Shown in pieces: positions 1 through 62,452 of a stretch of 64,000 nt of DNA. Made by a program: the position numbers and the translations under genes. The stretch is taken from NCBI GenBank assembly GCA_903899885.1, contig CAIULK010000014.1, forward strand, positions 18,362 through 82,361, given 5' to 3'. Each line of letters starts with the position of its first letter. Position 1 is the first letter of the stretch. The DNA is from an uncultured Rhodospirillaceae bacterium (GTDB lineage Bacteria > Pseudomonadota > Alphaproteobacteria > Rhodospirillales > Magnetospirillaceae). Below the pieces are notes generated by a model, which was given only the letters and a program-made list of their open reading frames with translations, did not search any database and had not been told where the DNA came from.

Positions 1-63
1 GGCCATGGCTTTGCGCACGAACGTGTGCCGTAATTCGGCGCCGGTCAAAATGACGATGTTCAT
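1..63 (-). CDS. 5' end (21 codons) of a divergently transcribed gene that runs off the window; product not assignable
   Basis: The reverse strand reads ATG (63..61) then MNIVILTGAELRHTFVRKAMA. This looks like a Rossmann-type N-terminus (formyltransferase-like is only a guess). Confidence 0.35.
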   Translation of the reverse strand, partial: MNIVILTGAELRHTFVRKAMA

Positions 64-143
64 GCTTACCCTTCGGCATCGGCGTAGGCGCAGCAGAGTA
101 TGCGGGTTCGGGCAAGGGTTCAAGGCCGACGTTCCAGATACGC

Positions 144-176
144 GGGATCACCTGTTGACACGAAAGACGTGATCCC
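144..176 (+). promoter_or_regulatory. Perfect 8-bp inverted repeat GGGATCAC-N17-GTGATCCC enclosing a consensus TTGACA (155..160); candidate operator/promoter of the MarR-like gene
   Basis: Read directly from the sequence. It ends 9 nt upstream of the ORF start at 185. MarR-family proteins typically bind palindromes that overlap their own promoters. Confidence 0.4.
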
Positions 177-184
177 TCAAGACT

Positions 185-829
185 ATGGCCCGTGTTCACG
201 GAATGAACGACATATTGGAATTCCCCCCCGTCATGGCGAAGGCCGACGATCAAATCACCCTGCACCTGCTTCAGGCGATTTCGGACGATTCCTCGCTCAC
301 GCAACGCTTTGCCGCCAAGCGGCTGGGGGTGGCGGTCGGACTGGTGAATTCCTATTTGCGCCGTTGCGTGAAAAAGGGTCATGTCAAGATCACGCAGATT
401 CCACCAAACCGTTATCTGTATTATCTGACACCTTCGGGCTTCGCCGAGAAAAGTCGCCTGTCGGCTGATTACTTGCTGGGTTCCTTGACCTTCTATCGCA
501 ACGCCCGGCGGGAATGCGAGGAACTGCTGGCTCGGTGCGCGCAAAATGGCTGGCGACGGGTGGGTTTGGCCGGTGTTGGTGATCTGGCTGAAATCGCCAC
601 CTTATGTTTTCATCAAAGCGAGGCGGAATTGGCCGGTGTCATTGATCCCAGGTCGTCGCAGACCTCGTTTCTGGGGCATCCCGTGGTGGCGGATGTTCAC
701 GGCCTGGAGCCACTGGATGCGGTTTTGTTGACCGATTTGACCGATCCGCAAGCCACCTTTAGCGAACTGCGCAGCCAAATGCCCGCGGTGCGCATTCTGG
801 TGCCCGCCATTCTGTGTTTGCCATCATGA
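185..829 (+). CDS. Winged-helix (MarR-like, EPS-locus-associated type) transcriptional regulator
   Basis: The N-terminal wHTH reads 'LTQRFAAKRLGVAVGLVNSYLRRCVKKGHV' and is followed by 'YLYYLTPSGFAEKSRL'. It is the first gene of the glycan locus. An alternative start lies at 203. Confidence 0.65.
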   Translation: MARVHGMNDILEFPPVMAKADDQITLHLLQAISDDSSLTQRFAAKRLGVAVGLVNSYLRRCVKKGHVKITQIPPNRYLYYLTPSGFAEKSRLSADYLLGSLTFYRNARRECEELLARCAQNGWRRVGLAGVGDLAEIATLCFHQSEAELAGVIDPRSSQTSFLGHPVVADVHGLEPLDAVLLTDLTDPQATFSELRSQMPAVRILVPAILCLPS

Positions 830-2457
830 TGGAACGGCTGTTTCCTGCGCTCCGCATGCTGGGGCGCACTATTTTTTGGCTGTCGCTGGCCTCGGTGCCG
901 TTGGGGGCGGCCTTGGGCGTGTTGGAAATTCTGTTGGGTATCGGTTTGCTGCAGGTGATGCGCCAGTTTGGGCTGGCCGCAGAAAGCGGGGGCATGGGCC
1001 TATCTTTCCCCGGTGGCCCGCTGACCGGATTGATCATGGTTTCGGCCGCCCTGACCGTGCTGCGCCTGCTGCGTTACGCCCTGCCCTGGATTACCGTTGA
1101 AATGTTCGGGCAACGGGTCCGTGATCATCTGATGGACCGGGTGCTGGGTGATCACCGCGAAACGGTACCCTTGGGCATGGCGGAGATTTCCAACATCTTG
1201 AGCGTGCTGTTGCCCAAGGGCGGCAAGATCCTGGATTCCGTTACTCAATCGGTGGCCTCGGCGATCCAGATCACCGCCCTGCTGGCTGCGATGTTGTACC
1301 TGGATATGCGGGTGACCGGATTGCTGTTGGTATCGGGCTTTGTCCTGGGCTTGCCGGTTTTGCTGCTGCGTCGTACCTTCCAGGGGTTCGCCGATCGCTC
1401 GCGCAAGGAGGTGGAGCGCTTCACCCGTCTTCTCGTCCGTAACGCCCAGAACGTTGTCTTCATTAAATTATGCGGCATGGGACGGATCGAGGCCGAACAG
1501 ATGCGCGCGATGTCGGCGCGCGGACAGCACCACTTCAATCAATTCACCTGGATCTTCGCCGCATCCTCGGCCTTGCCGCAATTCTCGGGCGTGCTGCTGA
1601 TCGCCTTTATGCTGGTCGCCAATGACAGCCGGCATTTCCTCAGCCCGGCAGTTCTGATTCCCTTCACCTATATGCTGTGGCGTTTGGCCAGCACGGCGGC
1701 ACAGCTGGGGTCATCCTCGGCTCAGACCAATGTTGCAATGCCGTTCTTTGTGCAGTTGATCGATCGGCTGGGGCCGATCGTCCAGGCGGTCCCTGAACCG
1801 GAGGACACTCAAGGTCCCGCTCCGGTGTTGCGTTCGCTTGATGTTCGCGGCCTGATCATCGGGCGCGAGCGGGCCTTGTTTTCCGGCCTTGATGTCAGCG
1901 TGGGGGCAGGGGATTGTTTGTTGATCGCCGGGCCGTCGGGGCGAGGCAAGACCACTTTGCTGATGACCGTGCTGGGGTTGTTGCTGCCGCACGGCGGAAT
2001 GGTGAGCTGGAACCATGTGCCGCTCGACGATTTTCCCCAAGCGGCTTTCCGCAGTCGGATCGGTTACGCCGGGCAGGATCCGTTCCTGTTCGAGGGCAGC
2101 CTGCGGGACAATCTGTTGTACGGCAACCGCCAGGACATCGACGATGACGCGGTGCACAAGGCGCTCGGTGCCGCCCGCTGCGGGTTCGTGCACGATTTCG
2201 CGGGCGGCCTGGATCATCCTTTGTCCGAGGACGGCGGCGGCATCTCGGCGGGCCAAAAGCAACGCTTGGCAATTGCCCGCGCGTTGCTGCGCCGTCCCGA
2301 TGTTTTGGTCTTTGACGAAGCTACCGCTAATATCGACGAGGCGACCGAGGCCGAGATCATGGCCAATATCCGGCGCGATTTTCCCACCGTGATGATTCTG
2401 GCAGTGTCGCACCGTGCTTCCATGCGCACCTTCGCGACCCGCGTTATCGAAATCTAG
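826..2457 (+). CDS. Fused ABC exporter (N-terminal permease plus C-terminal ATPase), MsbA/lipid or polysaccharide exporter type
   Basis: Walker A 'GPSGRGKTTLL', ABC signature 'ISAGQKQRLAIARALL' and Walker B 'VLVFDEATANID' are present. The N-terminal half has multiple hydrophobic helices. The ATG at 826 overlaps the upstream stop (ATGA); a GTG at 814 is also possible. Confidence 0.9.
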   Translation: MMERLFPALRMLGRTIFWLSLASVPLGAALGVLEILLGIGLLQVMRQFGLAAESGGMGLSFPGGPLTGLIMVSAALTVLRLLRYALPWITVEMFGQRVRDHLMDRVLGDHRETVPLGMAEISNILSVLLPKGGKILDSVTQSVASAIQITALLAAMLYLDMRVTGLLLVSGFVLGLPVLLLRRTFQGFADRSRKEVERFTRLLVRNAQNVVFIKLCGMGRIEAEQMRAMSARGQHHFNQFTWIFAASSALPQFSGVLLIAFMLVANDSRHFLSPAVLIPFTYMLWRLASTAAQLGSSSAQTNVAMPFFVQLIDRLGPIVQAVPEPEDTQGPAPVLRSLDVRGLIIGRERALFSGLDVSVGAGDCLLIAGPSGRGKTTLLMTVLGLLLPHGGMVSWNHVPLDDFPQAAFRSRIGYAGQDPFLFEGSLRDNLLYGNRQDIDDDAVHKALGAARCGFVHDFAGGLDHPLSEDGGGISAGQKQRLAIARALLRRPDVLVFDEATANIDEATEAEIMANIRRDFPTVMILAVSHRASMRTFATRVIEI

Positions 2458-2479
2458 TTCAGAACAACGAGAGCCCTTC

Positions 2480-4174
2480 ATGTCCCTGCGCGACGCCTTG
2501 TTGACGAGCCGCTTCGTTCCCGCGGCCATATTCGAATTGTACCGTTTGGGTCGCTATCCGAAACGGGTTGGCCCGTTGTATGTCGACTTGTGGCGCACGC
2601 GGCGCAAGGCGGCGTTCCTGCGCCAGATGACGGCACCCGCCTCGAACGGCAAAACGGTGTTCATTCCGTCGCTCAGCACGCGGCTGATGCAGATCAAGGC
2701 CGAGGCGATGCTGGCGATCGCCCTGAAACGCAGAGGTTGGCATCCGGTGGTGTTCCTGGCGTCACGTAAGGACCCGATTCCGCGCCGCTATTTCGAGGTC
2801 TTCGGCATCACCGATTTCGTCTATTATGACGATTTCCCGTTGAGCGCCGAGGATAAGGCAACCACCCAGGCGGAAGCTGACCGGATCGCTGGTGGCACGG
2901 TGACCACCCAGACCGTCAAGAACCTGCGGTTTGGTAAGGCGTGGCTGGGGCCACAGATCATTTCGACGATTTCACGCGAAACCTATCAAGGGGCACCGGA
3001 TATCACCAATCCCGCCGTGCTGGCCCGGGTGGTCGAAATGCTGCCCGAGATGATCGAACGCTGCCTGATCGCCGAGCGGGTGATGGAGGCGGTCAAGCCC
3101 GATCTGATCCTGACCAACGAACCCAACTATGCCTTTTATGGCCCGATTATCGACATCGCTATCGCCAATAATGTCGAGGTCATCCACTTCACCATGCCCT
3201 GGCGGGACGACGCCTTTAACTTCAAGCGCCTTGTGCCCTCGACCCGGCGCTTTCATCCCTCGTCGGTGGCGCAAAATTCCTTCGAGCGGGTGCGGCAGTT
3301 GGACTGGACGCCCGCAATGGATCAGACGGTCGACGAGGTCTTTCAGGTCCGCAGCTATGGCGGCCACCGGATGATGTCGATCAACCAAAACGGCGTGCGC
3401 CCCTTCGCCCGCGAGGAGATTTGCCGTGAATTGAACCTGGACCCGGCCAAGAAGATCGCCGTGGTCTTCTCGCATATCCTGTGGGACGCCAACCTGTTTT
3501 ACGGTGACGACCTGTTCGAGAACATGGGCGAATGGCTGGTCGAAACCGTCAAGGCGGCGGCGGCGAATCCGGCGGTCAATTGGGTGATCAAACTGCACCC
3601 CGCCAATATCTTCAAGCTCCAGCGCGACGACTGCGTCACCAAGGAAATCAACGATCTTCAGTTGATCCGCGATCATGTCGGCGACCTGCCGCCGCACGTT
3701 TTCATCTTGGCCCCCGACAGCCCGATCAGCAGCCTGTCTTTTTACCAGGGCGCCGATTACATTATCACCGTGCGCGGCACGGTTAGCGCCGAGGCGCCCT
3801 GTTTCGGGGTTCCCCTGCTGACCGCCGGAACCGGCCGCGCCGACCATTTGGGCTTCACCGTCGATTCCGAATCGCGCGAGGAGTATTTGGACCGGCTGGC
3901 CCATATTCAAGACATCCCGCGGCTGAGCGACGAGCAGGTGCGGCTGGCCCGCCAGCACGCTTATGCCGCGTTTTGCTGCCGCCCGTGGGTGCTGCGCAGT
4001 TTCCGGGTCGATCTGCGGTCCTTGACCGACGCCAGCGATGTTTTAGGATGGAACATGCATCTGGTCGCCAAATCCGAGGATGAGATCGACCGGTTTGGCG
4101 ATCTGCCCGCCTTCGCCGAATGGGTGGAAAACCCCGATCAGATCGACTACCTCAACCTGGACGTGGCCCGGTAA
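2480..4174 (+). CDS. Capsule-polysaccharide-biosynthesis (KpsS/KpsC/LpsZ-like) protein; candidate CMP-sugar-dependent glycosyltransferase
   Basis: The motifs 'NWVIKLHPAN' and 'YIITVRGTVSAEAPCFGVPLLTAGTGRADHLGFT' resemble the K-x-HP and C-terminal G-rich motifs of the KpsS/KpsC family. The gene itself is confident; the family call is from memory of motifs only. Confidence 0.45.
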   Translation: MSLRDALLTSRFVPAAIFELYRLGRYPKRVGPLYVDLWRTRRKAAFLRQMTAPASNGKTVFIPSLSTRLMQIKAEAMLAIALKRRGWHPVVFLASRKDPIPRRYFEVFGITDFVYYDDFPLSAEDKATTQAEADRIAGGTVTTQTVKNLRFGKAWLGPQIISTISRETYQGAPDITNPAVLARVVEMLPEMIERCLIAERVMEAVKPDLILTNEPNYAFYGPIIDIAIANNVEVIHFTMPWRDDAFNFKRLVPSTRRFHPSSVAQNSFERVRQLDWTPAMDQTVDEVFQVRSYGGHRMMSINQNGVRPFAREEICRELNLDPAKKIAVVFSHILWDANLFYGDDLFENMGEWLVETVKAAAANPAVNWVIKLHPANIFKLQRDDCVTKEINDLQLIRDHVGDLPPHVFILAPDSPISSLSFYQGADYIITVRGTVSAEAPCFGVPLLTAGTGRADHLGFTVDSESREEYLDRLAHIQDIPRLSDEQVRLARQHAYAAFCCRPWVLRSFRVDLRSLTDASDVLGWNMHLVAKSEDEIDRFGDLPAFAEWVENPDQIDYLNLDVAR

Positions 4175-8011: not shown

Positions 8012-9005
8012 CCGCATCGTCTTGTTCGCGTTGTTCTGGATGATCGGCCTGTCCCTGGGCTATCCGACCCTGAACCGCTACGCGCCGGGCGAGACCTCGT
8101 CGGTCTCGGACGCCCGCTATTACGCCGACATCGTCGAACGCGGCCCGGAGGCCGTCGGCGATATCGGTCATTGGCGCTACCGGGCGCTGGTGCCCGCCTT
8201 GGCCCGTCCAGTCTTCACGCTGATCAAGGGGCATATCGGCAGCTGGGAACCGCGCTACGGCGCGCTGCTGGTGGTCAACGCCGCCTTTTGCGCCGGGGCG
8301 GCGCTGATCGTCCTGGATTTGGGCGCCCTGGCCGGAGCCGGAACGGCAACCGCGCTGATCGCGGCCCTGCTGCTGCTGGGCAGTTTCAACACGCCCAATT
8401 TCTATCTGTCGGGACTGGTCGATTCCTCGGAATTGTTCGTGCTGACGGCGGCCTTCTGGGCATTGGCCTCGGGACGATTCGCGCTTTTGCCGGTGATCGG
8501 CGTGCTCGGCGGCGTGGCCAAGGAAAGTACCGTGCCCTTCATGGCGGCCCTAACCGGGGGCTGGTTCCTGGTCGAACTTCTGAGGCGCCGTCCATTCCTG
8601 CGCGGCTCGGTGATCGCCGTGGCGAGCGTGGGACTGGGGCTGGCCACGGTGCTGGCGGTGCGCCACCTCATCGGCGGGCAGGCCAATGCCCTTGCTGGCG
8701 TATCCGGAGCGCCCTTGGATCGTCCGCTGTCCTCGATCCTCCACGATATCCTGGCGGTGCCGTTGGGGCGCTCGTTTCTGTATTCCTTCGCCGGGATCCT
8801 GCCGTTCAGCCTGTTCAGCTTGAAGCGGCTGCCCGCACCCTGGTTGGGCGCGTTGGCCAGCGCCTTGCTGGCGGCCCTGGTTCTCGCCGGGTGGGCGGGA
8901 CTGGGCGATAATGCCGGCCGACCGCTTTTCTCGACCACCGGGGCGATTCTGGTTGTCGCGGCGGCCCTAACCCTGACCCGTTGGCTGAAGGACGAGGCGA
9001 GGTGA
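8004..9005 (+). CDS. Polytopic membrane protein, short GT-C-like
   Basis: There are about 9 hydrophobic segments. The first-loop motif 'SDARYYADIVE' resembles the ArnT/PMT 'DE-x-RYA' loop. Confidence 0.5.
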   Translation: MRNRIVLFALFWMIGLSLGYPTLNRYAPGETSSVSDARYYADIVERGPEAVGDIGHWRYRALVPALARPVFTLIKGHIGSWEPRYGALLVVNAAFCAGAALIVLDLGALAGAGTATALIAALLLLGSFNTPNFYLSGLVDSSELFVLTAAFWALASGRFALLPVIGVLGGVAKESTVPFMAALTGGWFLVELLRRRPFLRGSVIAVASVGLGLATVLAVRHLIGGQANALAGVSGAPLDRPLSSILHDILAVPLGRSFLYSFAGILPFSLFSLKRLPAPWLGALASALLAALVLAGWAGLGDNAGRPLFSTTGAILVVAAALTLTRWLKDEAR

Positions 9006-44327: not shown

Positions 44328-45680
44328 CTATCCCGGCGGGGCGGGGGGCGTTCCGCTGGCGGCCTCGGCCTCCATCCGGCCCATCGCGCCCAGCAGTTCA
44401 TAGGATGCCGCCACCATGTCGTAATAAGCGCCGAGATAGTTGATGCGGGCGTCGTTGATCTTGATTTCGCTGTCGAGAACCTCGGTGATGGTGGCCTTGC
44501 CCGCTTCGTGACGCTCGCGCATCGCCTTCCACAGCGCCTCGGCCAGATTGGCGGCGTTGTTGAGCAGCCCCATCCGCTCGCGGGCGGTCGATAGCTTGTA
44601 CCATGAGGTCCGGGTCAGCTCGAACACCTTGCGCCCGGCATAGACGTGATTGTCCAGGCTGGCGCCATGTTCGTGGGCGGCCTGCTTGACCAGCGATTGG
44701 GTTTTGAAGCCCGAGAATATTTCCCAATTGGCGGCCACCAACACCGACATGTCGCGCTTCAGCCCGGTGACGGCGTCGTTGCCGTCATTGTAGGCGGCGT
44801 GCCCGACCAGATCGAGCGTGGGATACCACCCCGCCTCGGCGCCTCGGCGTTTTTGGCCAGTCAGTTCGACATTGTCGCGGGCGGTTTCGATCGATGGATT
44901 TTCCTTGTCGGCAACGGCCAGGGCCTCGTCGATCGTCTTGGGAAGCAGGGCTTCGGGCAGGGGCGGCTCGGCCAGGGCGGCCAAATCGGGGGCATGGCCG
45001 AAAACCTGGGTGTATTTGGCGACGGCGGCCTGAAACTCGCCCTCGTAACGCACGCGGGCCTCCTTGGCGGTTTGCAGCCGCTGCTTGGCGGCCAAGACGT
45101 CCGAGGCCAGACCGGCGCCCTTTTCGACCCGTTCGTCTTCCAACTGAAGCTGCTCTTGAACCTTGCGCTCGCTTTCATGGGCAAGGTCGATCATCCGGGT
45201 TGCCTTGAGCACCGACACATAGGCGGTCACCCCTTCGAGCATGACGTTCTGGCGGGTGGTGCGCAGATCGGCATCCGAAATGTCGCGGCTAACCTCGGCG
45301 GCCGACACGGCCGCCTGGGTGGCCTCGCCGTCGTAAAGATGCTGGGTGACGGTCAGCCCGCTGGTTTCGCGGTTACGGAAATAGGGTTGGCCTTGGTTCT
45401 CGCGCCGATCCTGGCTATCGACATATTGCGGCCCGACGTCGCCGTTCAATTTGACGGTCGGCAGAAAGCCAGCGCGGGCGGCGCCAATACCCTCGGCCGC
45501 GGCCGAGACCGATTTGGCCTTGGATTGAATTTGCGGATGATCGGTAAGAAGGTTTTGCAGCTCGTCACCCAGGGATTGGGCATGGGACGGCGACGCGCAA
45601 AGACATGCCGCGACACACACCGCCCATCGGATTTTGGAATCCCGCCGAGCCAAAGAAACGCCCCTTCGCAAGTTCGACAA
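44328..45680 (-). CDS. TolC-family outer-membrane efflux/type I secretion protein
   Basis: It has a signal peptide ending 'SPSHAQS' and the two-fold repeated alpha/beta architecture typical of TolC. Confidence 0.8.
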   Translation of the reverse strand: MSNLRRGVSLARRDSKIRWAVCVAACLCASPSHAQSLGDELQNLLTDHPQIQSKAKSVSAAAEGIGAARAGFLPTVKLNGDVGPQYVDSQDRRENQGQPYFRNRETSGLTVTQHLYDGEATQAAVSAAEVSRDISDADLRTTRQNVMLEGVTAYVSVLKATRMIDLAHESERKVQEQLQLEDERVEKGAGLASDVLAAKQRLQTAKEARVRYEGEFQAAVAKYTQVFGHAPDLAALAEPPLPEALLPKTIDEALAVADKENPSIETARDNVELTGQKRRGAEAGWYPTLDLVGHAAYNDGNDAVTGLKRDMSVLVAANWEIFSGFKTQSLVKQAAHEHGASLDNHVYAGRKVFELTRTSWYKLSTARERMGLLNNAANLAEALWKAMRERHEAGKATITEVLDSEIKINDARINYLGAYYDMVAASYELLGAMGRMEAEAASGTPPAPPG

Positions 45681-50531: not shown

Positions 50532-50747
50532 CACTGGTGTTCCCGTGGCATTGGTGCCGTTTCGTCACCGTGACCGACGGTCACTACTGCCGCGTTGGCA
50601 CCGGTGTCATCGCGTCATGCGTGTAAACGCGGCAGTCGTGCCGATTTACGCCTATTTCCTACATTTCCCCTGCGTATGTTCCATTCTATGCGTGACCGCA
50701 TCACACTAGTGCCACCGCTACACTATTGCCACTTTCTCACTGGTGTT
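50532..50747 (+). repeat. Five copies of CACT-N2-TG-YY upstream of parA; candidate centromere/operator repeats
   Basis: The copies are cactggtgtt (50532), cactactgcc (50582), cactagtgcc (50704), cactattgcc (50721) and cactggtgtt (50738). Iteron-like ATGCGTG half-sites also occur at about 50617 and 50688. Confidence 0.3.
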
Positions 50748-50803
50748 TGATCGGCAGTGATGATAGCGTGCCGCGCGTCGATTTGCCGGAAAGGACCGTT
50801 GCC

Positions 50804-51496
50804 ATGGCCATGATCATCACCGTCGCCAACGAAAAGGGCGGCGTCGCGAAAACCACCGCCTCGTGCGAACTGGCTCTGCTCGCACAGCACAACGGCTACA
50901 AGACCGTGCTGATCGATACCGATCATCAGCAGGGGGCAACCAAGTTCAAATTGCGCCGCGATCAAGTGAGCGCCGAATTGCCGCCGCTGCGCGTCGTGCC
51001 CATCGTCGGTAAATCAGTCGGGTCGCAAATCGTTGATTTCGCGCGTGAAAACGACATTGTCGTGGTCGATGCGGGTGGCCGTGACAGCCAGGAGATGCGG
51101 CTTGCCATGTTGGTCTCGCACTTGGTGCTAATTCCGACGTCCGAGGGTGACGCCGATACCGACGGTTTGAACAAGATGGCGATGCTGATCAACGAAAGCC
51201 GGCTGCGGAATCCCGAGCTGAAGGCTTGGATCATGCCGGCCCGCATTCCGCCGACCAATTTTGGCGCGACCCGCGCCTTGATCGAGGAAGAACTGAATAA
51301 ACCGATCGATCCCTCGGTGCCGAACGAGCGTATCCGCGACGTGCTCGGCACGGTGACCCGCTGTTTTCTTGTTCAGCGTTCAGCCTATAAGACGGCCTAT
51401 GGATGGGGGCGCAGCGTGCGCGAGATGGACGGCCGCGATCCCAAGGCGGCAAGCGAGGTTCAGGCGTTTTATCAAGAGGTTGTCGATCATGGCTAA
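50804..51496 (+). CDS. parA: ParA-family partition ATPase (small, type Ib-like)
   Basis: It has the deviant Walker A 'ANEKGGVAKTT' and is about 230 aa long. Confidence 0.9.
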   Translation: MAMIITVANEKGGVAKTTASCELALLAQHNGYKTVLIDTDHQQGATKFKLRRDQVSAELPPLRVVPIVGKSVGSQIVDFARENDIVVVDAGGRDSQEMRLAMLVSHLVLIPTSEGDADTDGLNKMAMLINESRLRNPELKAWIMPARIPPTNFGATRALIEEELNKPIDPSVPNERIRDVLGTVTRCFLVQRSAYKTAYGWGRSVREMDGRDPKAASEVQAFYQEVVDHG

Positions 51497-52559: not shown

Positions 52560-53576
52560 ATGATGAGCGCAAAGCTGGCGAGGACGGCGTTGGCCGACGA
52601 TCAGGGACGGACGATACATTCGCAACTGGAATTGTTCGGTCTCGATACGTGCCTGGAGATGATGCGTACCGACCGCGCGCTCCCCGCCACCGTGGTCGTG
52701 GCGCGGCAGAGACAACTCACCGCCGCGCATCGTGTGATGTGCGAGGATTCCATCGAGGATGTTTCGTTCCTGCATGCCGGTCTGTGCCAAACCTCGTTGC
52801 CACATTCGCGTCCGGCGGCCAATAACGAGCCCTGGCAACGCAGCAACGGCCGTTTCCATCTGGTCGTTGAACCCGGCACGGTGATCGATCCGGCGACCGG
52901 GCGGGCGGCTTGGGTGGGCGTGCCGTTCGGCACCCGGGCGCGGTTGATCATGCTGTATCTGAATCGGCACGGCACGCGCGGACGGCGGGTGCATCTGGGC
53001 AATTCGATGACCGACTGGATGGACCGGTTGGGGATCAAGGCGACCGGCGGCAAGAATGGCAGCATCCGGGCGGTCAAGGAACAGTCGGTGCGGTTGGGCC
53101 GCGCCCGCTTCTCGTTGCAGTTCGAGAACCCGGAAACCGGCGCGTTGGGAATTTCCGACACGCAGTTGGCCGACCACCTGCATCTGTGGGTCACCGATGC
53201 CGAAGGGCCGTGGCTTGAGGAAATCGAACTGACCGAGAAGTTTCACGAGCATCTGCGCGAGCATGCGGTGCCGCTCAGCGACGGGGCAATCTCGTATTTG
53301 TCGGGCTCGAGCCTGAAGCTTGATCTTTATGCCTGGGCCGCGTGGCGGCTGCCGCGCCTGGAGCGCAGTTTGCGCCTGAATTGGACCCAGGTCGCGGCCA
53401 CCTTTTCGGCGGCCGGCGAAGCCAACAAGGTGGCCGCCAAGGTGCGCGAGGCGTTGGTTGATGTGCAGACGGTCTACCGCGATATGAAGATCGAGACCGC
53501 GCGGCACGGGCTGTTGCTGCATCCGTCGAAACCGCCGATCCCGCGCACGCTGATTCAAGTGGGCGGCAAACGATAA
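52560..53576 (+). CDS. repA: Replication initiator protein A (alphaproteobacterial plasmid RepA type)
   Basis: The motifs 'SFLHAGLCQTSLPHSR', 'GVPFGTRARLIMLYL' and 'LKLDLYAWAAWRLPRL' match my memory of this family. The gene is adjacent to the iterons. Confidence 0.8.
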   Translation: MMSAKLARTALADDQGRTIHSQLELFGLDTCLEMMRTDRALPATVVVARQRQLTAAHRVMCEDSIEDVSFLHAGLCQTSLPHSRPAANNEPWQRSNGRFHLVVEPGTVIDPATGRAAWVGVPFGTRARLIMLYLNRHGTRGRRVHLGNSMTDWMDRLGIKATGGKNGSIRAVKEQSVRLGRARFSLQFENPETGALGISDTQLADHLHLWVTDAEGPWLEEIELTEKFHEHLREHAVPLSDGAISYLSGSSLKLDLYAWAAWRLPRLERSLRLNWTQVAATFSAAGEANKVAAKVREALVDVQTVYRDMKIETARHGLLLHPSKPPIPRTLIQVGGKR

Positions 53577-55835: not shown

Positions 55836-55864
55836 ACTAAAGTGTCAAGTCGCCGTCAAGTCAA
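55836..55864 (-). promoter_or_regulatory. Candidate promoter TTGACT-N17-TTTAGT within a triple CTTGAC repeat
   Basis: The minus strand reads 'CTTGACTTGACGGCGACTTGACACTTTAGT', about 35 nt upstream of the dehydrogenase ATG. Confidence 0.3.
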
Positions 55865-55878
55865 GCCGGATCGAGTGT

Positions 55879-58800
55879 CTACGCCCCGACCATGTAGAAC
55901 GCCGACCAGATGTAGGGCGCGCTCCATTGCGGGTTGCGCAGCATTTCCAGCTGGGTCTCGCGCAGGGCCTGGTGCGGCGCCACGCCCGCCATCAGCCGTT
56001 TGTACAGCGCGGCCATCAGGGTTTGGGTGCCGGCGTCGCTGACCTCCCACAAGGATGAGATCACCGATTGGGCGCCCGCTTCCTGGAAAGCGCGGCGCAG
56101 GCCGTAGACGCCTTCGCCCTCGTGGATTTCGCCCAGGCCGGTTTCGCAGGCCGACAAGATCGCCAGCCGGGTGCCCGACAGATCCAGCCCAAGCACTTCC
56201 AGCGCGGTCAGAACCCCGTCGTTGTCCGTGTCGATTTCGCCCAGCACCGGGGCGTTGGCGTTGATTCCGGCAAAGGCAAGACCAGAGCGCAGCAACGGGT
56301 TGTCGCCGGGCGGCGGCACCGGCAGATCGTTGCCGCCGCTGCGTTGCAAGGCCAGCAGGCGCCGGCGCAGCGAATCGTCGGGCTTCAGAAAAAAGCCGTG
56401 CGTGGCGATATGCAGGAATTCCGGCGGGTCGGCGCGGTCGCGCAACACCTGCTCCTGGGCGTCGGCCTTGCTGAACAGCACCGATTGACGGGCGTCGCCC
56501 TCGGGCGTGCTGGCTTGAATGGTCTTTTCGATCAGGCGCCCTTCGCGTTCGGCGCCCGGCAGCGGGTCGAAATGCAGCCCGCGCATGCCCGATGCCAAGC
56601 CCCGCATCGACTCTTGGACCGTGGCACTCCGGCGTTTCAAGGTTTCGACGGTGGTCTTGTCGGCCAGAATGTCGAGATTGTAGTCGGGACCGGCGGCCAC
56701 CACGAAGCCGCCCTTGGCGGGCGGCACATGGGTGGGCAGCAGATCGCGGGCCGATCCCAGGATATGCAGGTCGATCCGTTCCATCAGATAGCGGCCGTTC
56801 TTTTCGACCAAGGCGGCGAAAGGCAGGATGTTCAAGGTGCCGTCGGGCACGACATACACATTGGTGCGCTTTCCGATCACCCGCTCCAACGGTTGCCAAA
56901 TCCGGCCGTAGACCGCCTGACCGCTGTCTTGCAGATCGTCGAGCTCGATATCCTCGTTTTGGATGTCCGCGCGGTATTTTAAAATGGCGGCGTCAATATC
57001 GGCGGCGTGGTCGTAGACCACCGTTTGATAGACCGGCTTGCCGTCTTCCTTATGCACCGCCCCGGCGACCAGACGCCGCGCCGATCCCTCGCCCAGCGTG
57101 AAGAAATCGACCAACACGGCGTCGTCGGGCAAGGCGGCGGCCACCTGTTCGGCCGTCACCGGCGCCACCTGTTCGCGGAAGCGCTGGCTGGCGCGCCCCA
57201 AATCGCCTTCCAGACGGTGAATCTGGTCCTCCAGATCGGCCATCACCTCAAGATGATGCTCGTGGGTTTCCGGGGTCGGGCCGGACAGGGTCAGCGCCGC
57301 CAGTTTCTTGCGCGCCAGTTCCAGTTGTCCGGCCAGTTTGGCCATTTCCGGGTCACGCGACAGCCGGGTGATTTGCTGAATTTGCGAGGCGACCGACAAC
57401 AGCAAGCCCTTGCGGGCGACGGTGACGTCGAGCATGCCCTTGCCGCTGACCGCTTCGCTCTTCTTGAGCAGCGCGTTCACGTAGTCGGCCAGTTCCGGGG
57501 CGTGCAGGCGGACATAGCCTTCGCGCGCGTTGTCGCCGGTTACCGGCAGCATGCGTTCGTAGAAGATGTTGCGCCGCTCGAAGATGGTCCGCCGGGTGGT
57601 CAGCGCCGCATCGACATCGCCCAGATCCTCTTGAACCCCGGCCAGGGTGTTTAGGACCTCGAAGGTATAGGGATGGCTGGGACCCAGGACGATCTCGTCG
57701 GTGGCCAGCGTGACCTTCAACAAGGCCAGTGCCTTGTCGAAACGCTTGGTCTGACGGTAGAGCGCCGCCAGATCGTGCATCGAGCGCAAGGTGTCCAGAT
57801 GGTTGGGGCCCAAGGCGGCGCGGCGGGCGGCCAGCGCTTGGTCGAACAGGGTTTCGGCTTCCTTGACGTGACCGGCGCCCGCTTCGGCGCGGGCCAGATT
57901 GTTGAGAGCCTTCAGTGTGTCTTGGTGGGTGGGGCCCAGCGTCTTTTTCCACGCCTCATGCACCGCCCGGAAGCGGGGGGCGGCGTCGGCGTAGCGGCCT
58001 TGCAACAGGTACAGATAGGCCAGATTATTGTCGGCGGCGGCGGCCTCGGGGTGGCGCGGCCCGCTCATTTTCGCCTCGGTCGCCGCGACGGTTTTGTAAA
58101 GCGGCTCGGCGCGGTCGAACAGTCCTTGCGATTCATACAGCAGGGCCAAATTGTTCATGCCCGCCAAGGTCGTCGGGTGGGTGTCGCCGTAAATCTTGTG
58201 TTCGGAGTCGAAGGCGGCGCGCAAGGGGGGTTCGGCCTGATCGAACAGGCCCTCCTTCTCCAGGATTTCGCCGAGATTGCCCGCCGCGACGGCGGTCGCC
58301 GGATGGCTGTCGCCCAGAATTTTGTGATACCCGGCGTAGGCGGTGGCGAATCCGTTCTCCGCCTCGGCCAAGCGGCCCTGCTTGCGGTGAATGGCGGCCA
58401 GCGTGCCGGTCGCCGCCAGGGTTTGCGGATGGTCGGGACCAAGGGTTTTGGTGGCGTGGTCCAGAACCTCGGCCGCCAGTTTTTCGGCCGCCTCCAGATC
58501 GTCCTGATCCGAGAGAACCTCGGCCAAGTCGGCCTTGGCGCGCCACGAGGTCAAGGGTTCCAGGGCCGTCCTCGCCTCGGCCAATCGTCCTTGCGCCCGA
58601 AAGGTTTCGCCCCGTCCGGCTTGCAGTCCGGGGACGGCTGGGTCGCTGGCGGGCAGGCCCGCCAGGGCCTTGTCGTATGCGGTCACCGCGTCGGGAAACA
58701 GGCCCCGCTCGCGTGCCAGATCCGCCGACAGGCCCAGGCAGTGCAGGCTGTCGAGATGGCTGTCGCCCAGGATTTTGCGGGTGGTGGCGCACAGGCCGGG

Positions 58801-59412
58801 CAGCACCCCGGCGGCGGCCTCCAACCGTCCGGCGGTCAGATCGGATTGCACCAAGGCTTGCTTGGCGGCCAAGGTCAGCGGATGGGTCCGGCCCAAGGCG
58901 GTGCCGGCGTTGGCGACATTGGCGGTGCGGTATTCGCGGGCCTTGGCGAACAGCCCGTTCGCCTCGTACATCTGGGCGGCAAGGCCCCGGATGCGCAGGG
59001 TCTCGGGATGGCCGTTGCCCAAAACCGCGTCGGCCGAGGCCAGCGCCGTGGTGAACGCGGTTTCGGCGGCCTCGACATGCCCGGCGCGGCCTTCCAACTG
59101 CCCCAGATCGGTGGCGGAAATGATTGTGGCGATGTGATTCTCACCCAGATTGTCGCGGGCGATCGACAGCGCCATCCGGGCGGCATCCAACGCCGCGTCT
59201 TGGGGGGTGGCGGGATCGACCGCCTTGGCGTGGGTGCGGTTCCACATCACCGCGGCGCGGCGCTTGGCGTCGGGCACGTCCGAGGCGGCTTGCCGCTTCG
59301 CATCGACCCAGGCGGGCAGGGCCGAGGGGTCGGCCGCCGAACCGGAGTGCGGGGCCAGGGCCAGGGCCAATCCCAGATACAGCGCCAGCGGCAGCCTTTG
59401 GTCGCGCATCAT
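55879..59412 (-). CDS. Secreted TPR-repeat / CHAT (caspase-like peptidase) domain protein, 1177 aa
   Basis: The signal peptide is 'LALYLGLALALAPHSGSAADP'. About a dozen TPR_12-type repeats follow ('LG..HP.T'). The C-terminal CHAT domain has His in 'HIATHGFF' (codon 56398..56400) and Cys in 'ILSACETG' (codon 56146..56148). Confidence 0.85.
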   Translation of the reverse strand: MMRDQRLPLALYLGLALALAPHSGSAADPSALPAWVDAKRQAASDVPDAKRRAAVMWNRTHAKAVDPATPQDAALDAARMALSIARDNLGENHIATIISATDLGQLEGRAGHVEAAETAFTTALASADAVLGNGHPETLRIRGLAAQMYEANGLFAKAREYRTANVANAGTALGRTHPLTLAAKQALVQSDLTAGRLEAAAGVLPGLCATTRKILGDSHLDSLHCLGLSADLARERGLFPDAVTAYDKALAGLPASDPAVPGLQAGRGETFRAQGRLAEARTALEPLTSWRAKADLAEVLSDQDDLEAAEKLAAEVLDHATKTLGPDHPQTLAATGTLAAIHRKQGRLAEAENGFATAYAGYHKILGDSHPATAVAAGNLGEILEKEGLFDQAEPPLRAAFDSEHKIYGDTHPTTLAGMNNLALLYESQGLFDRAEPLYKTVAATEAKMSGPRHPEAAAADNNLAYLYLLQGRYADAAPRFRAVHEAWKKTLGPTHQDTLKALNNLARAEAGAGHVKEAETLFDQALAARRAALGPNHLDTLRSMHDLAALYRQTKRFDKALALLKVTLATDEIVLGPSHPYTFEVLNTLAGVQEDLGDVDAALTTRRTIFERRNIFYERMLPVTGDNAREGYVRLHAPELADYVNALLKKSEAVSGKGMLDVTVARKGLLLSVASQIQQITRLSRDPEMAKLAGQLELARKKLAALTLSGPTPETHEHHLEVMADLEDQIHRLEGDLGRASQRFREQVAPVTAEQVAAALPDDAVLVDFFTLGEGSARRLVAGAVHKEDGKPVYQTVVYDHAADIDAAILKYRADIQNEDIELDDLQDSGQAVYGRIWQPLERVIGKRTNVYVVPDGTLNILPFAALVEKNGRYLMERIDLHILGSARDLLPTHVPPAKGGFVVAAGPDYNLDILADKTTVETLKRRSATVQESMRGLASGMRGLHFDPLPGAEREGRLIEKTIQASTPEGDARQSVLFSKADAQEQVLRDRADPPEFLHIATHGFFLKPDDSLRRRLLALQRSGGNDLPVPPPGDNPLLRSGLAFAGINANAPVLGEIDTDNDGVLTALEVLGLDLSGTRLAILSACETGLGEIHEGEGVYGLRRAFQEAGAQSVISSLWEVSDAGTQTLMAALYKRLMAGVAPHQALRETQLEMLRNPQWSAPYIWSAFYMVGA

Positions 59413-61469
59413 TTTTCCTTATGGGTATAGACGCCGTCCCAGTCGGTACCGGGCGGTTCGGCCTCGAAATGAGCGATCCGGTCGAGGTAGATCGTGTAGA
59501 TCATCCGGTTGGGTTCCAAGGCGGTCAGGGCCTGGAATCCGGCCTTGGCGGTGGCCCAATCTTGAGCGCGGAAGGCGGCCAGGGCCGCGTGATGGCGGGC
59601 CAGAACGGCCAGGGTGTCGGCGGAAACCTCGCCCTCGAAACCCAAGGGTTCGAACAGATGGACCGGCTGATCCTTGCCCTTGACCCGCACGCGGTCGATT
59701 TCGCGGCAAATCAGATCGGGCACGGCGGCGCGGGTGAATTCGCTGATCATCGCGCCGACCCCGTATTGCTTGGTCAGGCTTTCGATGCGCGAACCCAGAT
59801 TGACCGCGTCACCCATCACCGTATAGGCCAACCGGAAATCGGATCCCATGTTGCCGACGCTCATCACGCCGGAATTCAGGCCGATGCCGACCTTGATCGG
59901 TTTCCAGCCGCGCGCCACGAAATCGACCGACAGATCCTCCATGGTCTTGCCCATCGCCATCGCCGCTTGCACGGCGTGCCGCGCGTGATCGGGATCGGTC
60001 AAGGGCGCGCCCCAAAAGGCCATGATCGCGTCGCCCATGTATTTGTCGATGGTGCCGTGATTTTGGTGGATCACCCGGGTCATCGGCGACAGGAAGGCGT
60101 TCATCAGGACGGTGAGTTCCTGCGGCGCCAAGCCCTCTGAAATCGAGGTGAAGCCGCGAACATCGGAAAACAGCACGGTCATTTCACGCGATTCGCCGCC
60201 GACCGAGACTTCCTGGCCGGTCCGGCTCATCTCGGCGACCAGTTCGGCGGGGATATATTGGCCGAAGGTCCGCGAAATTTGGCGCCGCTGGCGGCGTTCG
60301 AGGATGAATTGGCGGAACTCGACCACCAAATGGCCAAGGATCAGGGCCGCCAGGATATAGCTCATCGGCACGATCAGACCGCGCGACACATACAGCACGG
60401 TGGCGGTCGCGATGAAGCCGCCGACGATCGCGAAGAAGCCCAGCGCACGGCGGAACGGCGAATGGACCCACGCTTCCAGCAGCACCAGCAGCGCCATCAT
60501 GCCCAACGCCACGGCGGTTTCGAGCGGAGCGCCCAGCGGCTGCAAGGGGCCACCCTTGAGCAGGGTGGCGATGGTGTCGCCGATGATCTCGACCCCGTAG
60601 ACCGAGCCGACCGGCGTGTCGAACCAGTCGTGCGAGACATCCGAGGTATCGCCGATCAGCACGATCTTGTCGCGCACCCAGGTGGCCAGTTCCTCGCGGT
60701 CGCCCGGATCCATCGCGTCGAGATCGACCAGGAATTCGTTGGCGGAAATTCCGGTGGTCTGGCTGAGGAAGCGGGTGCCGGTCACCAGCGGGGGATAATC
60801 GATGGCGATCCGGCTGGATTCGTCCAAGGGCACCGCGCGGTCGCCCAGGATCAACCGGTTGGCGTCCAGCTTGGGCGTGACCCCCAGATAAGCGGCGACC
60901 GCCTTGACGGCGATCGGCCAGCCGCCCGGCTGACCGGTCGCCTCGGGATAGATCTTGACCCGCGACAAGTTGGTCATCAACCGGCTCGACGAGACCGCGT
61001 TGGCATAGCCGGTGTCTGCGGCGGCATCGAGAACCGGGGTCGGGTGATTGATGCGCCCCATCTTGCCGTTTTTCACCTCGCCCTGCGAGACCAGCAGGAC
61101 GTTTCCAGCCTCCCGCAAGGCGGCCGCCAGGATGGGGTCCTCGCCGTAGGACGAGGGGAAGTCCATCAACATATCGACCACGGCCACGCGGGCGCCAAGC
61201 GCCCGGACGTTGCGGACGATGGTCCCGATATCGGTGCGGCGTAGCGGAAAGCTTTTATAGGCCTTGAAGAACGCCTCGTCGGTGTTGACGAAGCCGACGT
61301 CGGGCAGGGGGGCGAGGGCGGCGGGGTCGCCGTAGGCCAAACGCATCTGGTGGCGAAAGCCGATGGTCTGATCCTCGATCAACGAGAACCATTCCTGCCG
61401 TTGGCCGAGAACGGCCAGCCCGCACAGCAAGACCACCAGAGCGAGGTCATAGCGTCTGGTGGTCTTCAT
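59409..61469 (-). CDS. CHASE2-sensor class III adenylate/guanylate cyclase
   Basis: An N-terminal TM helix and periplasmic CHASE2-like region are followed by a 3-TM block. The cyclase motifs 'VLFSDVRGFTSISE', 'GDAIMAFWGAP' and 'VNLGSRIES' are present. There is a helical-repeat C-terminal tail. The stop overlaps the CHAT start (ATGA). Confidence 0.85.
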   Translation of the reverse strand: MKTTRRYDLALVVLLCGLAVLGQRQEWFSLIEDQTIGFRHQMRLAYGDPAALAPLPDVGFVNTDEAFFKAYKSFPLRRTDIGTIVRNVRALGARVAVVDMLMDFPSSYGEDPILAAALREAGNVLLVSQGEVKNGKMGRINHPTPVLDAAADTGYANAVSSSRLMTNLSRVKIYPEATGQPGGWPIAVKAVAAYLGVTPKLDANRLILGDRAVPLDESSRIAIDYPPLVTGTRFLSQTTGISANEFLVDLDAMDPGDREELATWVRDKIVLIGDTSDVSHDWFDTPVGSVYGVEIIGDTIATLLKGGPLQPLGAPLETAVALGMMALLVLLEAWVHSPFRRALGFFAIVGGFIATATVLYVSRGLIVPMSYILAALILGHLVVEFRQFILERRQRRQISRTFGQYIPAELVAEMSRTGQEVSVGGESREMTVLFSDVRGFTSISEGLAPQELTVLMNAFLSPMTRVIHQNHGTIDKYMGDAIMAFWGAPLTDPDHARHAVQAAMAMGKTMEDLSVDFVARGWKPIKVGIGLNSGVMSVGNMGSDFRLAYTVMGDAVNLGSRIESLTKQYGVGAMISEFTRAAVPDLICREIDRVRVKGKDQPVHLFEPLGFEGEVSADTLAVLARHHAALAAFRAQDWATAKAGFQALTALEPNRMIYTIYLDRIAHFEAEPPGTDWDGVYTHKEK

Positions 61470-61498
61470 GTTGTCGTCTCCAAAAAAGGACGAACCGC

Positions 61499-62452
61499 CT
61501 AGTTCGTGCCCAGCATATCGTTGTAAAGCGTGGCTTCGGCCTGCTTCAGGTCGGCCAGCTTCAGCTCGTTGTAGATGCGGATCAACAGCGGACGCATGTC
61601 GTTGTCGTCCTTGTTTTCGTTGAAGTATTTACGGTAGGCATCCATCGCCGCGACCAGCACGCCTTTTTCATCGAGCAGATTGGCCAGCGGGAAGACGTCA
61701 TTGGGGGCACCGGCCTTGACGCGGGCGACGCTGTCGGCCAGCGCCTTGTCCTCGGCGGGCGACAACCAGATCAACGAGCCTTCCTTGTCGGCTTCCGACA
61801 CCACGTGACCGCCGCCATCCATCACCGCGACCGAGAAACCATGGGTTCCGGCCGACAGGGTGGGAACGTGGTAGCGGATCACCTTGTCGTCCGAGCCTTG
61901 CACCGTCGTCTTGGCGCCGTCGATGGTGATCACATAGGAATAGGCCTTGCCGAAGCTTTGCCAGACCAGATCGGGATAGGTCGCCGACAGCGTGACTTCA
62001 CGCGCCACCCGCAGTTTCGGCTGGCTGTCTTGCTGCACGCCCCGCCGCACGGCGGTATAGCGCTGCGCCTCGGCGAAGCGGTTGGCCAAACCGGCCGAGA
62101 GGTCGCCGCTTGCCGCCTCGGGGGCGGAGAGGCTGCCCGACACCACTTCGGGGGCCGCCGCGCCGATGCGAACCTGGGAACTGGGGCCCATCGTCCGGGC
62201 CATGTTGGTGGCTTGATCGACCAGCTTGCCCGAACCATCGGCGCCGGTCCGCACCAAGTCGCCCGCGAACAGGAATTTGTTTCGGGTGACCGCCTTCCAG
62301 CTGCTGCCGTCGCGGCTTTGTTCAACCGTCCCCATTACTTGGGTCAGCATCGCGACCGGCGGATCGGCCGCCAGCACGGGCATGCCGAACAGGATCGTGA
62401 AAAGCGCCAGAATTAGGGTGAACTTGGTCATCACAGCGAACTTGGTCGGCAT
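61499..62452 (-). CDS. Secreted FecR-domain protein
   Basis: The signal/anchor is '[22 protein letters not shown]'. The FecR-like beta region reads '[38 protein letters not shown]'. The ATG at 62452 has a GGGAGA RBS. Confidence 0.6.

Follow-up and report, generated by a model that had tools for sequence, protein, structure and literature searches.

We analysed a 64,000-nt stretch of DNA (hereafter the window) from an uncultured Rhodospirillaceae bacterium (contig CAIULK010000014.1 of assembly GCA_903899885.1) and concentrated on a locus of three genes, all on the minus strand. In the order of transcription they encode a homologue of MtxA, a receptor adenylyl cyclase with a CHASE2 domain, and a large exported protein with TPR repeats and a CHAT caspase-fold domain (317, 686 and 1177 aa; table 1). 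An initial annotation, made from the sequence alone, had described three tightly packed co-directional genes, with 29 nt and a GGAGAC motif between the first two, an ATGA overlap between the cyclase and CHAT genes, and a position between a flagellar gene and surface-glycan genes. The coordinates of the open reading frames (ORFs), within 55879..62452, and our reading of the sequence confirm this description: the upstream flank is FliD, and the downstream flank comprises a UDP-glucose dehydrogenase-family gene and a heptosyltransferase gene. The ribosome-binding site of mtxA, GGGAGA, sits 6 nt before its ATG at 62452. The genes had also been called translationally coupled. This fits the cyclase-CHAT junction, with its ATGA, but not the mtxA-cyclase junction, because there a hairpin with a T-run behind it encloses the stop codon of mtxA.

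The locus is a further copy of the named mtx cluster and not a new system. The triad had been presented as novel, a claim that falls with the published descriptions of this cluster (PMC4439547; PMC5088516). In Magnetospirillum gryphiswaldense, mtxA (MGR_0208) was called 'magnetotactic-bacteria-specific' in 2007, and a conserved gene for a CHASE2 adenylate cyclase comes after it in a putative signal-transduction operon; the two C-terminal domains of MtxA were crystallised in 2015 (PMC4439547). The mtx cluster of Magnetococcus MC-1 and Magnetofaba IT-1 comprises genes for a Sel1/TPR protein, MtxA and an adenylate/guanylate cyclase (PMC5088516). The window has the same elements, with mtxA beside a CHASE2 adenylate cyclase gene and a large TPR gene, in an order also found at L001-L007, L103 and L104. 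The cluster of M. gryphiswaldense shares with it the three-domain MtxA, the CHASE2-cyclase directly downstream and the large TPR protein ('Sel1/TPR' in the literature). Two further loci whose MtxA matches the crystal structure 4Z29 in the displayed linker stretch (L030, L033) have the gene order of the window. The window differs from the mtx clusters of the named genera by its divergence (~64% identity), by the absence of a fourth gene and by a degenerate hairpin between mtxA and the cyclase gene. The CHAT protease domain is not discussed in the accessible mtx literature (PMC4439547; PMC5088516), and we found no literature pairing CHASE2 with CHAT.

The first gene had been annotated as FecR-like and Sec-exported. 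Crude hydropathy does reveal a signal-peptide-like N-terminus, but Pfam assigns MtxA domains instead of FecR: PF24045, PF22433 and PF22121 match in this order, in a protein with the length (~310 aa) and the N-terminal signal peptide of the family. Residues 29-315 align with the crystallised M. gryphiswaldense MtxA (PDB 4Z29, E 3e-108), roughly two-thirds of them being identical by inspection, and the C-terminal half of the AlphaFold model (pLDDT 94.6) superposes on 4Z29 at a root-mean-square deviation (rmsd) of 0.9. The protein is ~64% identical to MtxA of Magnetospirillum, Paramagnetospirillum and Phaeospirillum, and an identical MtxA is present on metagenome contigs and on one NCBI contig. 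The family comprises 172 clusters at 50% identity among 1.84 billion representatives, nearly all ~310 aa long and of uniform architecture.

By Pfam, FecR (PF04773) has no match in the window MtxA at E ≤ 0.01, and none of 60 diverse family members matches it even at E ≤ 1. Comparing profiles with hhalign, the MtxA N-domain aligns with a true FecR domain from locus L014 at a probability of 56% (E 1e-4, 64 columns) and with the FecR protein of Sinorhizobium meliloti at a probability of 1%, while a profile search with this domain for FecR-annotated relatives returned one fragment only. A fold search with the whole MtxA model gave mostly Ig/FN3 matches, and a separate model of the N-domain (pLDDT 92.9) was more informative. 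Among its 50 listed PDB matches there is no FecR or PupR structure, and the sole listed match below E = 1 is 5IX9, the anchoring domain of MpIBP (E 5e-3, TM 0.63/0.76, rmsd 1.8). This periplasmic domain of a Marinomonas ice-binding adhesin is the template for the retention module of LapA (bioRxiv 10.1101/198937).

The second gene encodes a CHASE2 transmembrane receptor. As initially annotated, CHASE2 is predicted to lie outside and the class III cyclase inside, in agreement with the Pfam matches and with a 1+3 layout of transmembrane segments by crude hydropathy. The nearest solved structure of the cyclase domain is CyaB of Pseudomonas aeruginosa (3R5G, E 1.5e-36), with which the motifs align. 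The metal- and substrate-binding residues, whose absence the initial annotation had named as a point against itself, are all present, and the six catalytic residues are invariant across 52 MtxA-linked cyclases. Judged by its residues, the domain is catalytically complete, with a class IIIb adenylyl pattern, and is predicted to produce cyclic AMP (cAMP).

The third gene encodes a caspase-fold protein with a full-length CHAT match and both dyad motifs, its His and Cys codons lying where they had first been read. The dyad is strongly conserved: His is present in 120/120 relatives and Cys in 119/120, the lone exception being a contig-truncated sequence. A PDB sequence search with the single CHAT region found no match, while a profile of CHAT relatives gave marginal matches over the Cys motif (Csx29, E 0.03; DdvA 8ROT, E 0.11). 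The signal peptide proposed for this protein is supported by crude hydropathy and by signal-like N-termini in all triad-locus orthologues. At the start of both this protein and MtxA, charged residues precede a hydrophobic stretch and an AxA-like motif. The accompanying statement that TPR-CHAT proteins are known mainly from cytoplasmic systems is too narrow: 22 of 43 full-length relatives have signal-like N-termini by the same crude test, and DdvA of Myxococcus xanthus is periplasmic (PMC11506125). Exported TPR-CHAT proteins are common, not exceptional.

Table 1. Features of the mtx locus, in nucleotide positions of the window. E values are from Pfam.
Feature	Residues	Coordinates	Strand	Basis
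mtxA homologue, 317 aa		61499..62452	-	Pfam, PDB 4Z29, AlphaFold model
MtxA signal-peptide-like N-terminus, ...PVLA/AD cut	1-28		-	crude hydropathy, not SignalP
MtxA_N/DUF7354	30-116	62105..62365	-	Pfam, E 1e-30
MtxA interdomain linker motif AQRYT(T/A)VRR	128-137	62042..62071 (RR 62042..62047)	-	alignment
MtxA Ig-like domain	147-230	61763..62014	-	Pfam, E 3e-28
MtxA_C, TPR-like	233-312	61517..61756	-	Pfam, E 5e-36
Terminator-like hairpin ACGAAC-TAGG-CGGTTCGT, then CCTTTTTTGG; overlaps mtxA stop codon		61490..61507	-	terminator scan
GGAGAC ribosome-binding site, 6 nt before cyclase ATG		61476..61481	-	sequence read
Receptor adenylyl cyclase, 686 aa		59409..61469	-	Pfam, hydropathy
Cyclase transmembrane segments	about 8-22, 312-330, 343-361, 365-383		-	crude hydropathy
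CHASE2, periplasmic	17-327	60489..61421	-	Pfam, E 2e-26
Guanylate_cyc, cytoplasmic class III cyclase	428-601	59667..60188	-	Pfam, E 6e-20
Metal-binding Asp	D436	60162..60164	-	alignment to CyaB 3R5G
Metal-binding Asp	D480	60030..60032	-	alignment to CyaB 3R5G
Substrate-specifying Lys	K476	60042..60044	-	alignment to CyaB 3R5G
Substrate-specifying Thr	T550	59820..59822	-	alignment to CyaB 3R5G
Transition-state Asn	N557	59799..59801	-	alignment to CyaB 3R5G
Transition-state Arg	R561	59787..59789	-	alignment to CyaB 3R5G
ATGA: cyclase stop TGA overlapping TPR-CHAT start ATG		59409..59412	-	sequence read
TPR-CHAT protein, 1177 aa		55879..59412	-	Pfam
TPR-CHAT signal-peptide-like N-terminus, ...HSGSA/AD cut	1-26		-	crude hydropathy
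TPR_12/TPR_10 array (seven TPR_12 stretches), then helical linker	roughly 60-620		-	Pfam
CHAT caspase-fold domain PF12770	828-1177	55882..56931	-	Pfam, E 4e-78, model positions 1-289/289
His in HIATHG	1005	56398..56400	-	sequence read
Cys in LSACETG	1089	56146..56148	-	sequence read
Three CTTGAC copies CTTGACTTGACGGCGACTTGAC, including a perfect TTGACA; in the 79-nt spacer before the UDP-glucose dehydrogenase gene		55844..55865	-	sequence read

We then compared the locus with 8 genome and 80 metagenome MtxA loci, the metagenome scan having used a 17-sequence MtxA alignment. Of the 57 loci with 1.5 kb or more of downstream sequence, 56 have a CHASE2-cyclase gene next to mtxA, and the rule holds down to 40% MtxA identity. 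In nearly all loci this gene lies directly downstream on the same strand, and in L039 it is on the opposite strand. MtxA and the CHASE2-cyclase thus form a near-obligate pair, the core unit of the module. The lone locus with enough sequence and no cyclase gene (L022) has after mtxA an ORF (1874..3667) that may encode a c-type cytochrome, given the CxxCH haem-binding motif close to where it is truncated. At three marine loci (L053, L054, L067), genes for a CHASE2-Ser/Thr kinase (792-811 aa), a PP2C phosphatase and an FHA protein precede mtxA, so that one MtxA is flanked by two CHASE2 receptors.

The pair occurs far outside the magnetotactic bacteria: on many contigs of marine and lake origin, mtxA has Na+-NQR-like, BolA and YgjP genes as neighbours, and these are not magnetotactic genomes. 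This bears on the gene name, which implies a function specific to magnetotaxis. The original comparative-genomics label was indeed 'MTB-specific' (for magnetotactic bacteria), and the triad occurs in Magnetospirillum and Magnetococcus. However, deletion of mtxA left both the magnetosomes and the magnetic response normal (PMC4439547), and the family is also found in Phaeospirillum and on the marine and lake contigs just mentioned. A magnetotaxis-specific function is already largely refuted, and we give it hardly any credence.

The distribution of the protease is different from that of the pair. Where MtxA is at least 54% identical, an exported caspase-fold protease gene follows the cyclase gene in 18 of 18 informative loci. 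This is a TPR-CHAT gene in 16 of them; in the other two (L008, L038; also the partial L036), from a subclade with 57-58% MtxA identity, the slot holds a gene for an exported protein of ~1210 aa with WD40 repeats and a C-terminal Peptidase_C14 domain (Pfam, E 6e-10; motifs FLAGHG and DTCHSG), at 8417..12031 in L008, 3123..6770 in L038 and from 13062 to the contig end in L036. The expected co-occurrence of the three genes in related genomes could have failed, and it was found. The linkage also withstands changes of gene order. Loci of Rhodospirillales have the TPR-CHAT gene downstream of the pair; Magnetococcus sp. WYHC-3 (L100) and L074 have it first, ahead of mtxA and the cyclase gene. In Phaeospirillum molischianum the triad sits amid unrelated housekeeping genes. 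On a megaplasmid of Niveispirillum cyanobacteriorum (L097, 39..8788), proteins of these three functional types have been brought together independently: after a gene for an MBG-repeat protein come genes for a TPR-CHAT lipoprotein of 994 aa (CHAT E 2e-52), an exported protein of 226 aa without a Pfam match and a CHASE2-cyclase 30% identical to that of the window. Hence, the genetic tie between an exported caspase-fold protease and a CHASE2 cyclase, proposed initially from one locus, persists through gene reordering, replacement by the WD40-C14 protein and recurrence in Niveispirillum.

The TPR-CHAT protein may alternatively be a non-catalytic periplasmic scaffold, as the active site of the DdvA CHAT domain is incomplete and no activity has been demonstrated for it (PMC11506125). 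This is quite unlikely in our case: the dyad and the flanking motifs HIATHG and LSACETG are invariant in 119-120 of 120 relatives, the Pfam match spans the entire CHAT model, and the WD40 analogue that replaces the protein retains the caspase motifs.

Several known systems resemble parts of the module. In S. meliloti, CyaD1, CyaD2 and CyaK of the Clr cAMP cascade also combine CHASE2 with a class III cyclase, produce cAMP and have a small exported beta-rich protein alongside, which at one locus (L098) has a FecR domain (PF04773, E 9e-12). These cyclases answer a protein signal, the plant uL2, via the outer-membrane protein NsrA (PMC13001267), and the FecR-domain protein SMc02177 is dispensable for signal perception (PMC5498481). 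They differ from the window in that the cyclases are only ~29% identical to ours, their true FecR partner is convergent instead of operonic, and no CHAT or caspase gene is near their loci. A tblastn search of plasmids with the CHAT region listed no S. meliloti record and did not have Sinorhizobium among its frequent genera, although the cyclase matched 143 Sinorhizobium records; the cAMP-induced exported TPR protein SMb20495 of S. meliloti is probably not a TPR-CHAT. In Burkholderia and Pseudomonas, a LysM-FecR gene precedes a CHASE2 histidine kinase gene (BiofilmReg; PA4035/PA4036 type), such that, as in the window, a small exported partner comes directly before a CHASE2 receptor with tight junctions (PMC5192318). 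There, the output is a histidine kinase and response regulator, the partner has LysM and FecR domains, and no protease is present. Finally, a metacaspase-CHASE2 fusion in Trichodesmium erythraeum physically joins a caspase-fold domain to CHASE2 (PMC3501461; PMC2853523), but that receptor has the caspase domain as its cytoplasmic output, whereas the window encodes its protease as a protein of its own, exported to the side of the sensor.

Taken with the comparative data, these parallels incline us, with modest confidence, towards viewing the mtx cluster as an extracytoplasmic sensing module with a cAMP output, in which MtxA partners CHASE2 and an exported caspase-fold protease modulates the output. 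MtxA would be the obligate periplasmic partner of CHASE2, as co-receptor or adaptor, and the two would jointly set the activity of the cyclase according to a periplasmic or envelope cue. We assign this role to MtxA because of the obligate pairing, of the protein-binding surfaces of its TPR and Ig domains, which had been remarked upon (PMC4439547), and of the analogy with the small exported FecR-domain partners encoded next to CHASE2 receptors of S. meliloti (PMC5498481) and Burkholderia (PMC5192318). The linker AQRYT(T/A)VRR is conserved in every aligned MtxA shown, with or without a protease gene nearby, and is a candidate CHASE2-docking element.

In the lineage of the window, the exported protease would have been recruited to the MtxA-cyclase pair. 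Two arguments favour its modulating the pair. The stronger comes from the loci where an unrelated protease, which shares the fold but has different repeats, took over the slot after the cyclase; the other comes from the rearranged loci, in which the CHAT gene is still next to mtxA. The protease would most likely cleave a periplasmic protein of the pathway (MtxA, a loop of CHASE2 or a protein ligand) and thereby switch or reset cAMP synthesis, while the TPR array may act as a scaffold that binds substrate or signal and holds the protease latent, as in other TPR-CHAT enzymes. By analogy, a proteolytic step is plausible since the CHASE2 cyclases of S. meliloti answer a protein signal (PMC13001267). 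In many relatives, cAMP would probably be read by the product of a fourth gene, which directly follows the TPR-CHAT gene in 11 of them (L033, L001-L006, L015, L041, L104, L030). This protein (871 aa; L033 16947..19562) has an MBL fold, two cyclic-nucleotide (cNMP)-binding domains and a hemerythrin domain, and is likely a cAMP receptor or effector with an O2- or iron-sensing domain. The gene has no counterpart in the window.

Several observations weigh against this interpretation. Within the marine MtxA clade (<54% identity), neither protease is found within 10 kb in 20 of 20 informative loci; the exported protease is clade-restricted and is not a constant part of the module. The initial proposal of protease-linked second-messenger signalling therefore stands in part: the genetic link between protease and cyclase and the conserved catalytic residues of both favour it, and the missing protease of the marine clade does not. 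No segment of MtxA tracks the presence of the protease, AQRYTTVRR being equally conserved where the protease gene is absent. We rejected the linker PEAASGDL as a protease-specific segment, since it differs between clades but is confounded by phylogeny. In the sole genetic test, the M. gryphiswaldense mtxA deletion was as wild type in growth, magnetosomes, motility, and magnetic response and swarm assays (PMC4439547). Signal peptides and topology rest on crude hydropathy and not on a dedicated predictor such as SignalP, and the link among the MtxA, cyclase and TPR-CHAT proteins is drawn from sequence. Finally, MtxA and a CHASE2-cyclase accompany the protease at 1 of 7 loci in a sample taken from the CHAT side, and outside the cluster the TPR-CHAT proteins nearest to ours, at 50-54% identity over the CHAT region, are encoded without MtxA or CHASE2 beside them, so that the protease is not intrinsically tied to the cyclase.

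The main rival explanation builds on this last point. MtxA and the CHASE2-cyclase may be a complete sensor and the TPR-CHAT protein may have a separate envelope job, e.g. LapG-like adhesin processing, with the two units loosely co-regulated. The targets of the protease would then include surface or adhesin proteins with periplasmic domains akin to FecR or to retention modules. The neighbours of TPR-CHAT genes outside the mtx cluster fit this explanation: they include OEP/HSP70 genes, with OEP being TolC-like (L011, L012), a 1178-aa FecR and cadherin protein followed by a giant RTX protein (L014), and a giant cadherin protein of 2075 aa (L101), while the Niveispirillum TPR-CHAT is beside an MBG-repeat protein (L097). 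So do the marine MtxA-cyclase loci, which lack a protease, and the match of the MtxA N-domain model to 5IX9. On the other hand, the protease gene occupies the slot after the cyclase at all informative loci of one clade, an unrelated WD40-caspase came to fill this slot, and rearranged loci still have the CHAT gene next to mtxA. A neighbour with a separate function is not expected to be swapped for an analogue. Moreover, the cyclase-CHAT junction is tight or overlapping, from -4 to +58 nt in most loci and up to +116 nt in relatives. We regard two separate units as possible but rather unlikely; the alternatives invoking defence, magnetotaxis or a scaffold are poorly supported.

Some of these neighbours deserve mention in their own right. 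The mtxA-less TPR-CHAT genes of L014 and L101 are from Magnetococcales and adjoin giant cadherin or RTX proteins (L014, 7168..10704 and 10939 to the contig end; L101, 12797 to the contig end), one of which starts with the true FecR domain that aligns weakly to MtxA_N. OEP genes follow the nearest non-mtx TPR-CHAT genes (L011, L012), and the window itself has an OEP (TolC family) gene (44328..45680, minus strand) amid glycosyltransferase, asparagine synthase and B12-radical-SAM genes.

The resemblance of the MtxA N-domain to 5IX9 also suggests a more specific version of the sensing module, namely an outside-in counterpart of the Lap system of Pseudomonas fluorescens. The TPR-latched protease would cleave MtxA, or a ligand that MtxA presents, and CHASE2 would read the resulting state and pass it on as cAMP. 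The logic is shared: Lap has a periplasmic cysteine protease and a membrane protein linking the periplasm to a cyclic nucleotide, and its target resembles MtxA in that a linker comes after a small, beta-rich N-domain in the periplasm. In contrast to mtx, LapG is transglutaminase-like, LapD binds cyclic di-GMP and signals inside-out, and the target is a giant type-1-secreted adhesin. We found no homology to Lap beyond the fold of the MtxA N-domain, and the three proteins have neither LapG (PF06035) nor LapD domains by Pfam, such that the locus is not itself a Lap system. The counterpart reading is doubtful. If true, it would provide the first defined input mechanism for CHASE2 and, for a free CHAT protease of the periplasm, the first substrate. 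CHASE2 receptors in general would then use small beta-rich exported proteins (MtxA_N, FecR-domain proteins, the Niveispirillum 226-aa protein) as adaptors, and the same kind of protein would be the general target of exported caspase-fold proteases.

The locus could also be a defence sensor, in which the exported TPR-CHAT protein detects an invader-derived periplasmic signal, as may DdvA, and the cyclase makes an alarm molecule, as in Pycsar. DdvA is a solved periplasmic TPR-CHAT for which proteolysis-gated signalling was proposed, and it controls a CBASS/CRISPR island (PMC11506125). Like the window protein, it places a TPR-CHAT with a His-Cys dyad in the periplasm as part of transmembrane signalling (PMC11506125). 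Unlike it, DdvA is membrane-anchored, with a cytoplasmic zinc anti-sigma domain and an extracytoplasmic function (ECF) sigma factor output on defence genes, whereas the window protein is a free exported protein tied to a cyclase. It has ~26 residues before its mature part and no sigma70_r2/r4 neighbour, and so is not a DdvA-type anti-sigma factor. Craspase (Cas7-11 with Csx29) shares the TPR-CHAT architecture and the latent caspase-type dyad, but it is cytoplasmic, RNA-activated and encoded beside cas genes. We discarded a type III-E Craspase/Csx29 assignment, given the signal-peptide-like N-terminus, the absence of cas neighbours and the lack of a PADLOC match.

The cyclase domain does match the PycC models of PADLOC (best E 4e-32), and a plasmid-like ParA/RepA_C module lies 2-5 kb from the cluster. 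However, MtxA and the TPR-CHAT protein match no PADLOC model, and Pfam scans of the neighbourhood (52.5-63.9 kb, plus ten ORFs at 34-51 kb) revealed no effector, cas or CBASS gene. Lys476 and Thr550 are the purine (adenylyl) class IIIb pair, as in CyaB, and the PycC match reflects generic class III homology; with this purine-type pair and no effector gene, we also set Pycsar aside. The housekeeping surroundings in P. molischianum and the vertical conservation across a genus-level clade point the same way. A role in defence is very unlikely.

The spacers and flanks of the locus bear on its expression. The hairpin at the mtxA stop codon is weak and degenerate in the window (-10.9 kcal/mol, z -1.17 in a comparison with shuffled sequences). 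In the same mtxA-cyclase spacer, relatives (L001-L006, L015, L020, L025, L030, L033) have G+C-rich hairpins of 9-14 bp, several with T-runs; their position is kept and their sequence differs. Four of these, folded against shuffles, gave z from -3.0 to -4.7, with 0/200 shuffles as stable. The hairpin is possibly an attenuator between mtxA and the cyclase gene, which suggests higher production of MtxA than of the cyclase and the protease. At the other end, the initial annotation set the downstream boundary of the module at a promoter-like CTTGAC cluster. The three copies are present (55865..55844), but a sigma-70 scan found no minus-strand promoter there and a terminator scan found none after the TPR-CHAT gene; the boundary is therefore unproven. 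Just past the glycan genes lie the genes of the plasmid-like module, for a ParA/MinD-like ATPase (50726..51496, plus strand) and a RepA_C plasmid replication protein (52560..53576, plus strand). Given these, the window may be on a plasmid or chromid, or contain an integrated element.

What CHASE2 domains sense has been an open question since the domain was described in 2003, and the mtx cluster has been named since 2007 without a function. For the window itself, the outcome is mostly a corrected annotation and not a discovery. What is new lies in the comparison across loci: the MtxA-cyclase core, the interchangeable exported caspase-fold protease, the conserved hairpin, and the fourth gene with its cNMP-binding and hemerythrin domains. 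The 'magnetotaxis' label is misleading, because the MtxA-cyclase pair is widespread in non-magnetotactic freshwater and marine bacteria. The comparative pattern turns a vague 'signal-transduction operon' into specific experiments that are feasible in the genetically tractable M. gryphiswaldense.

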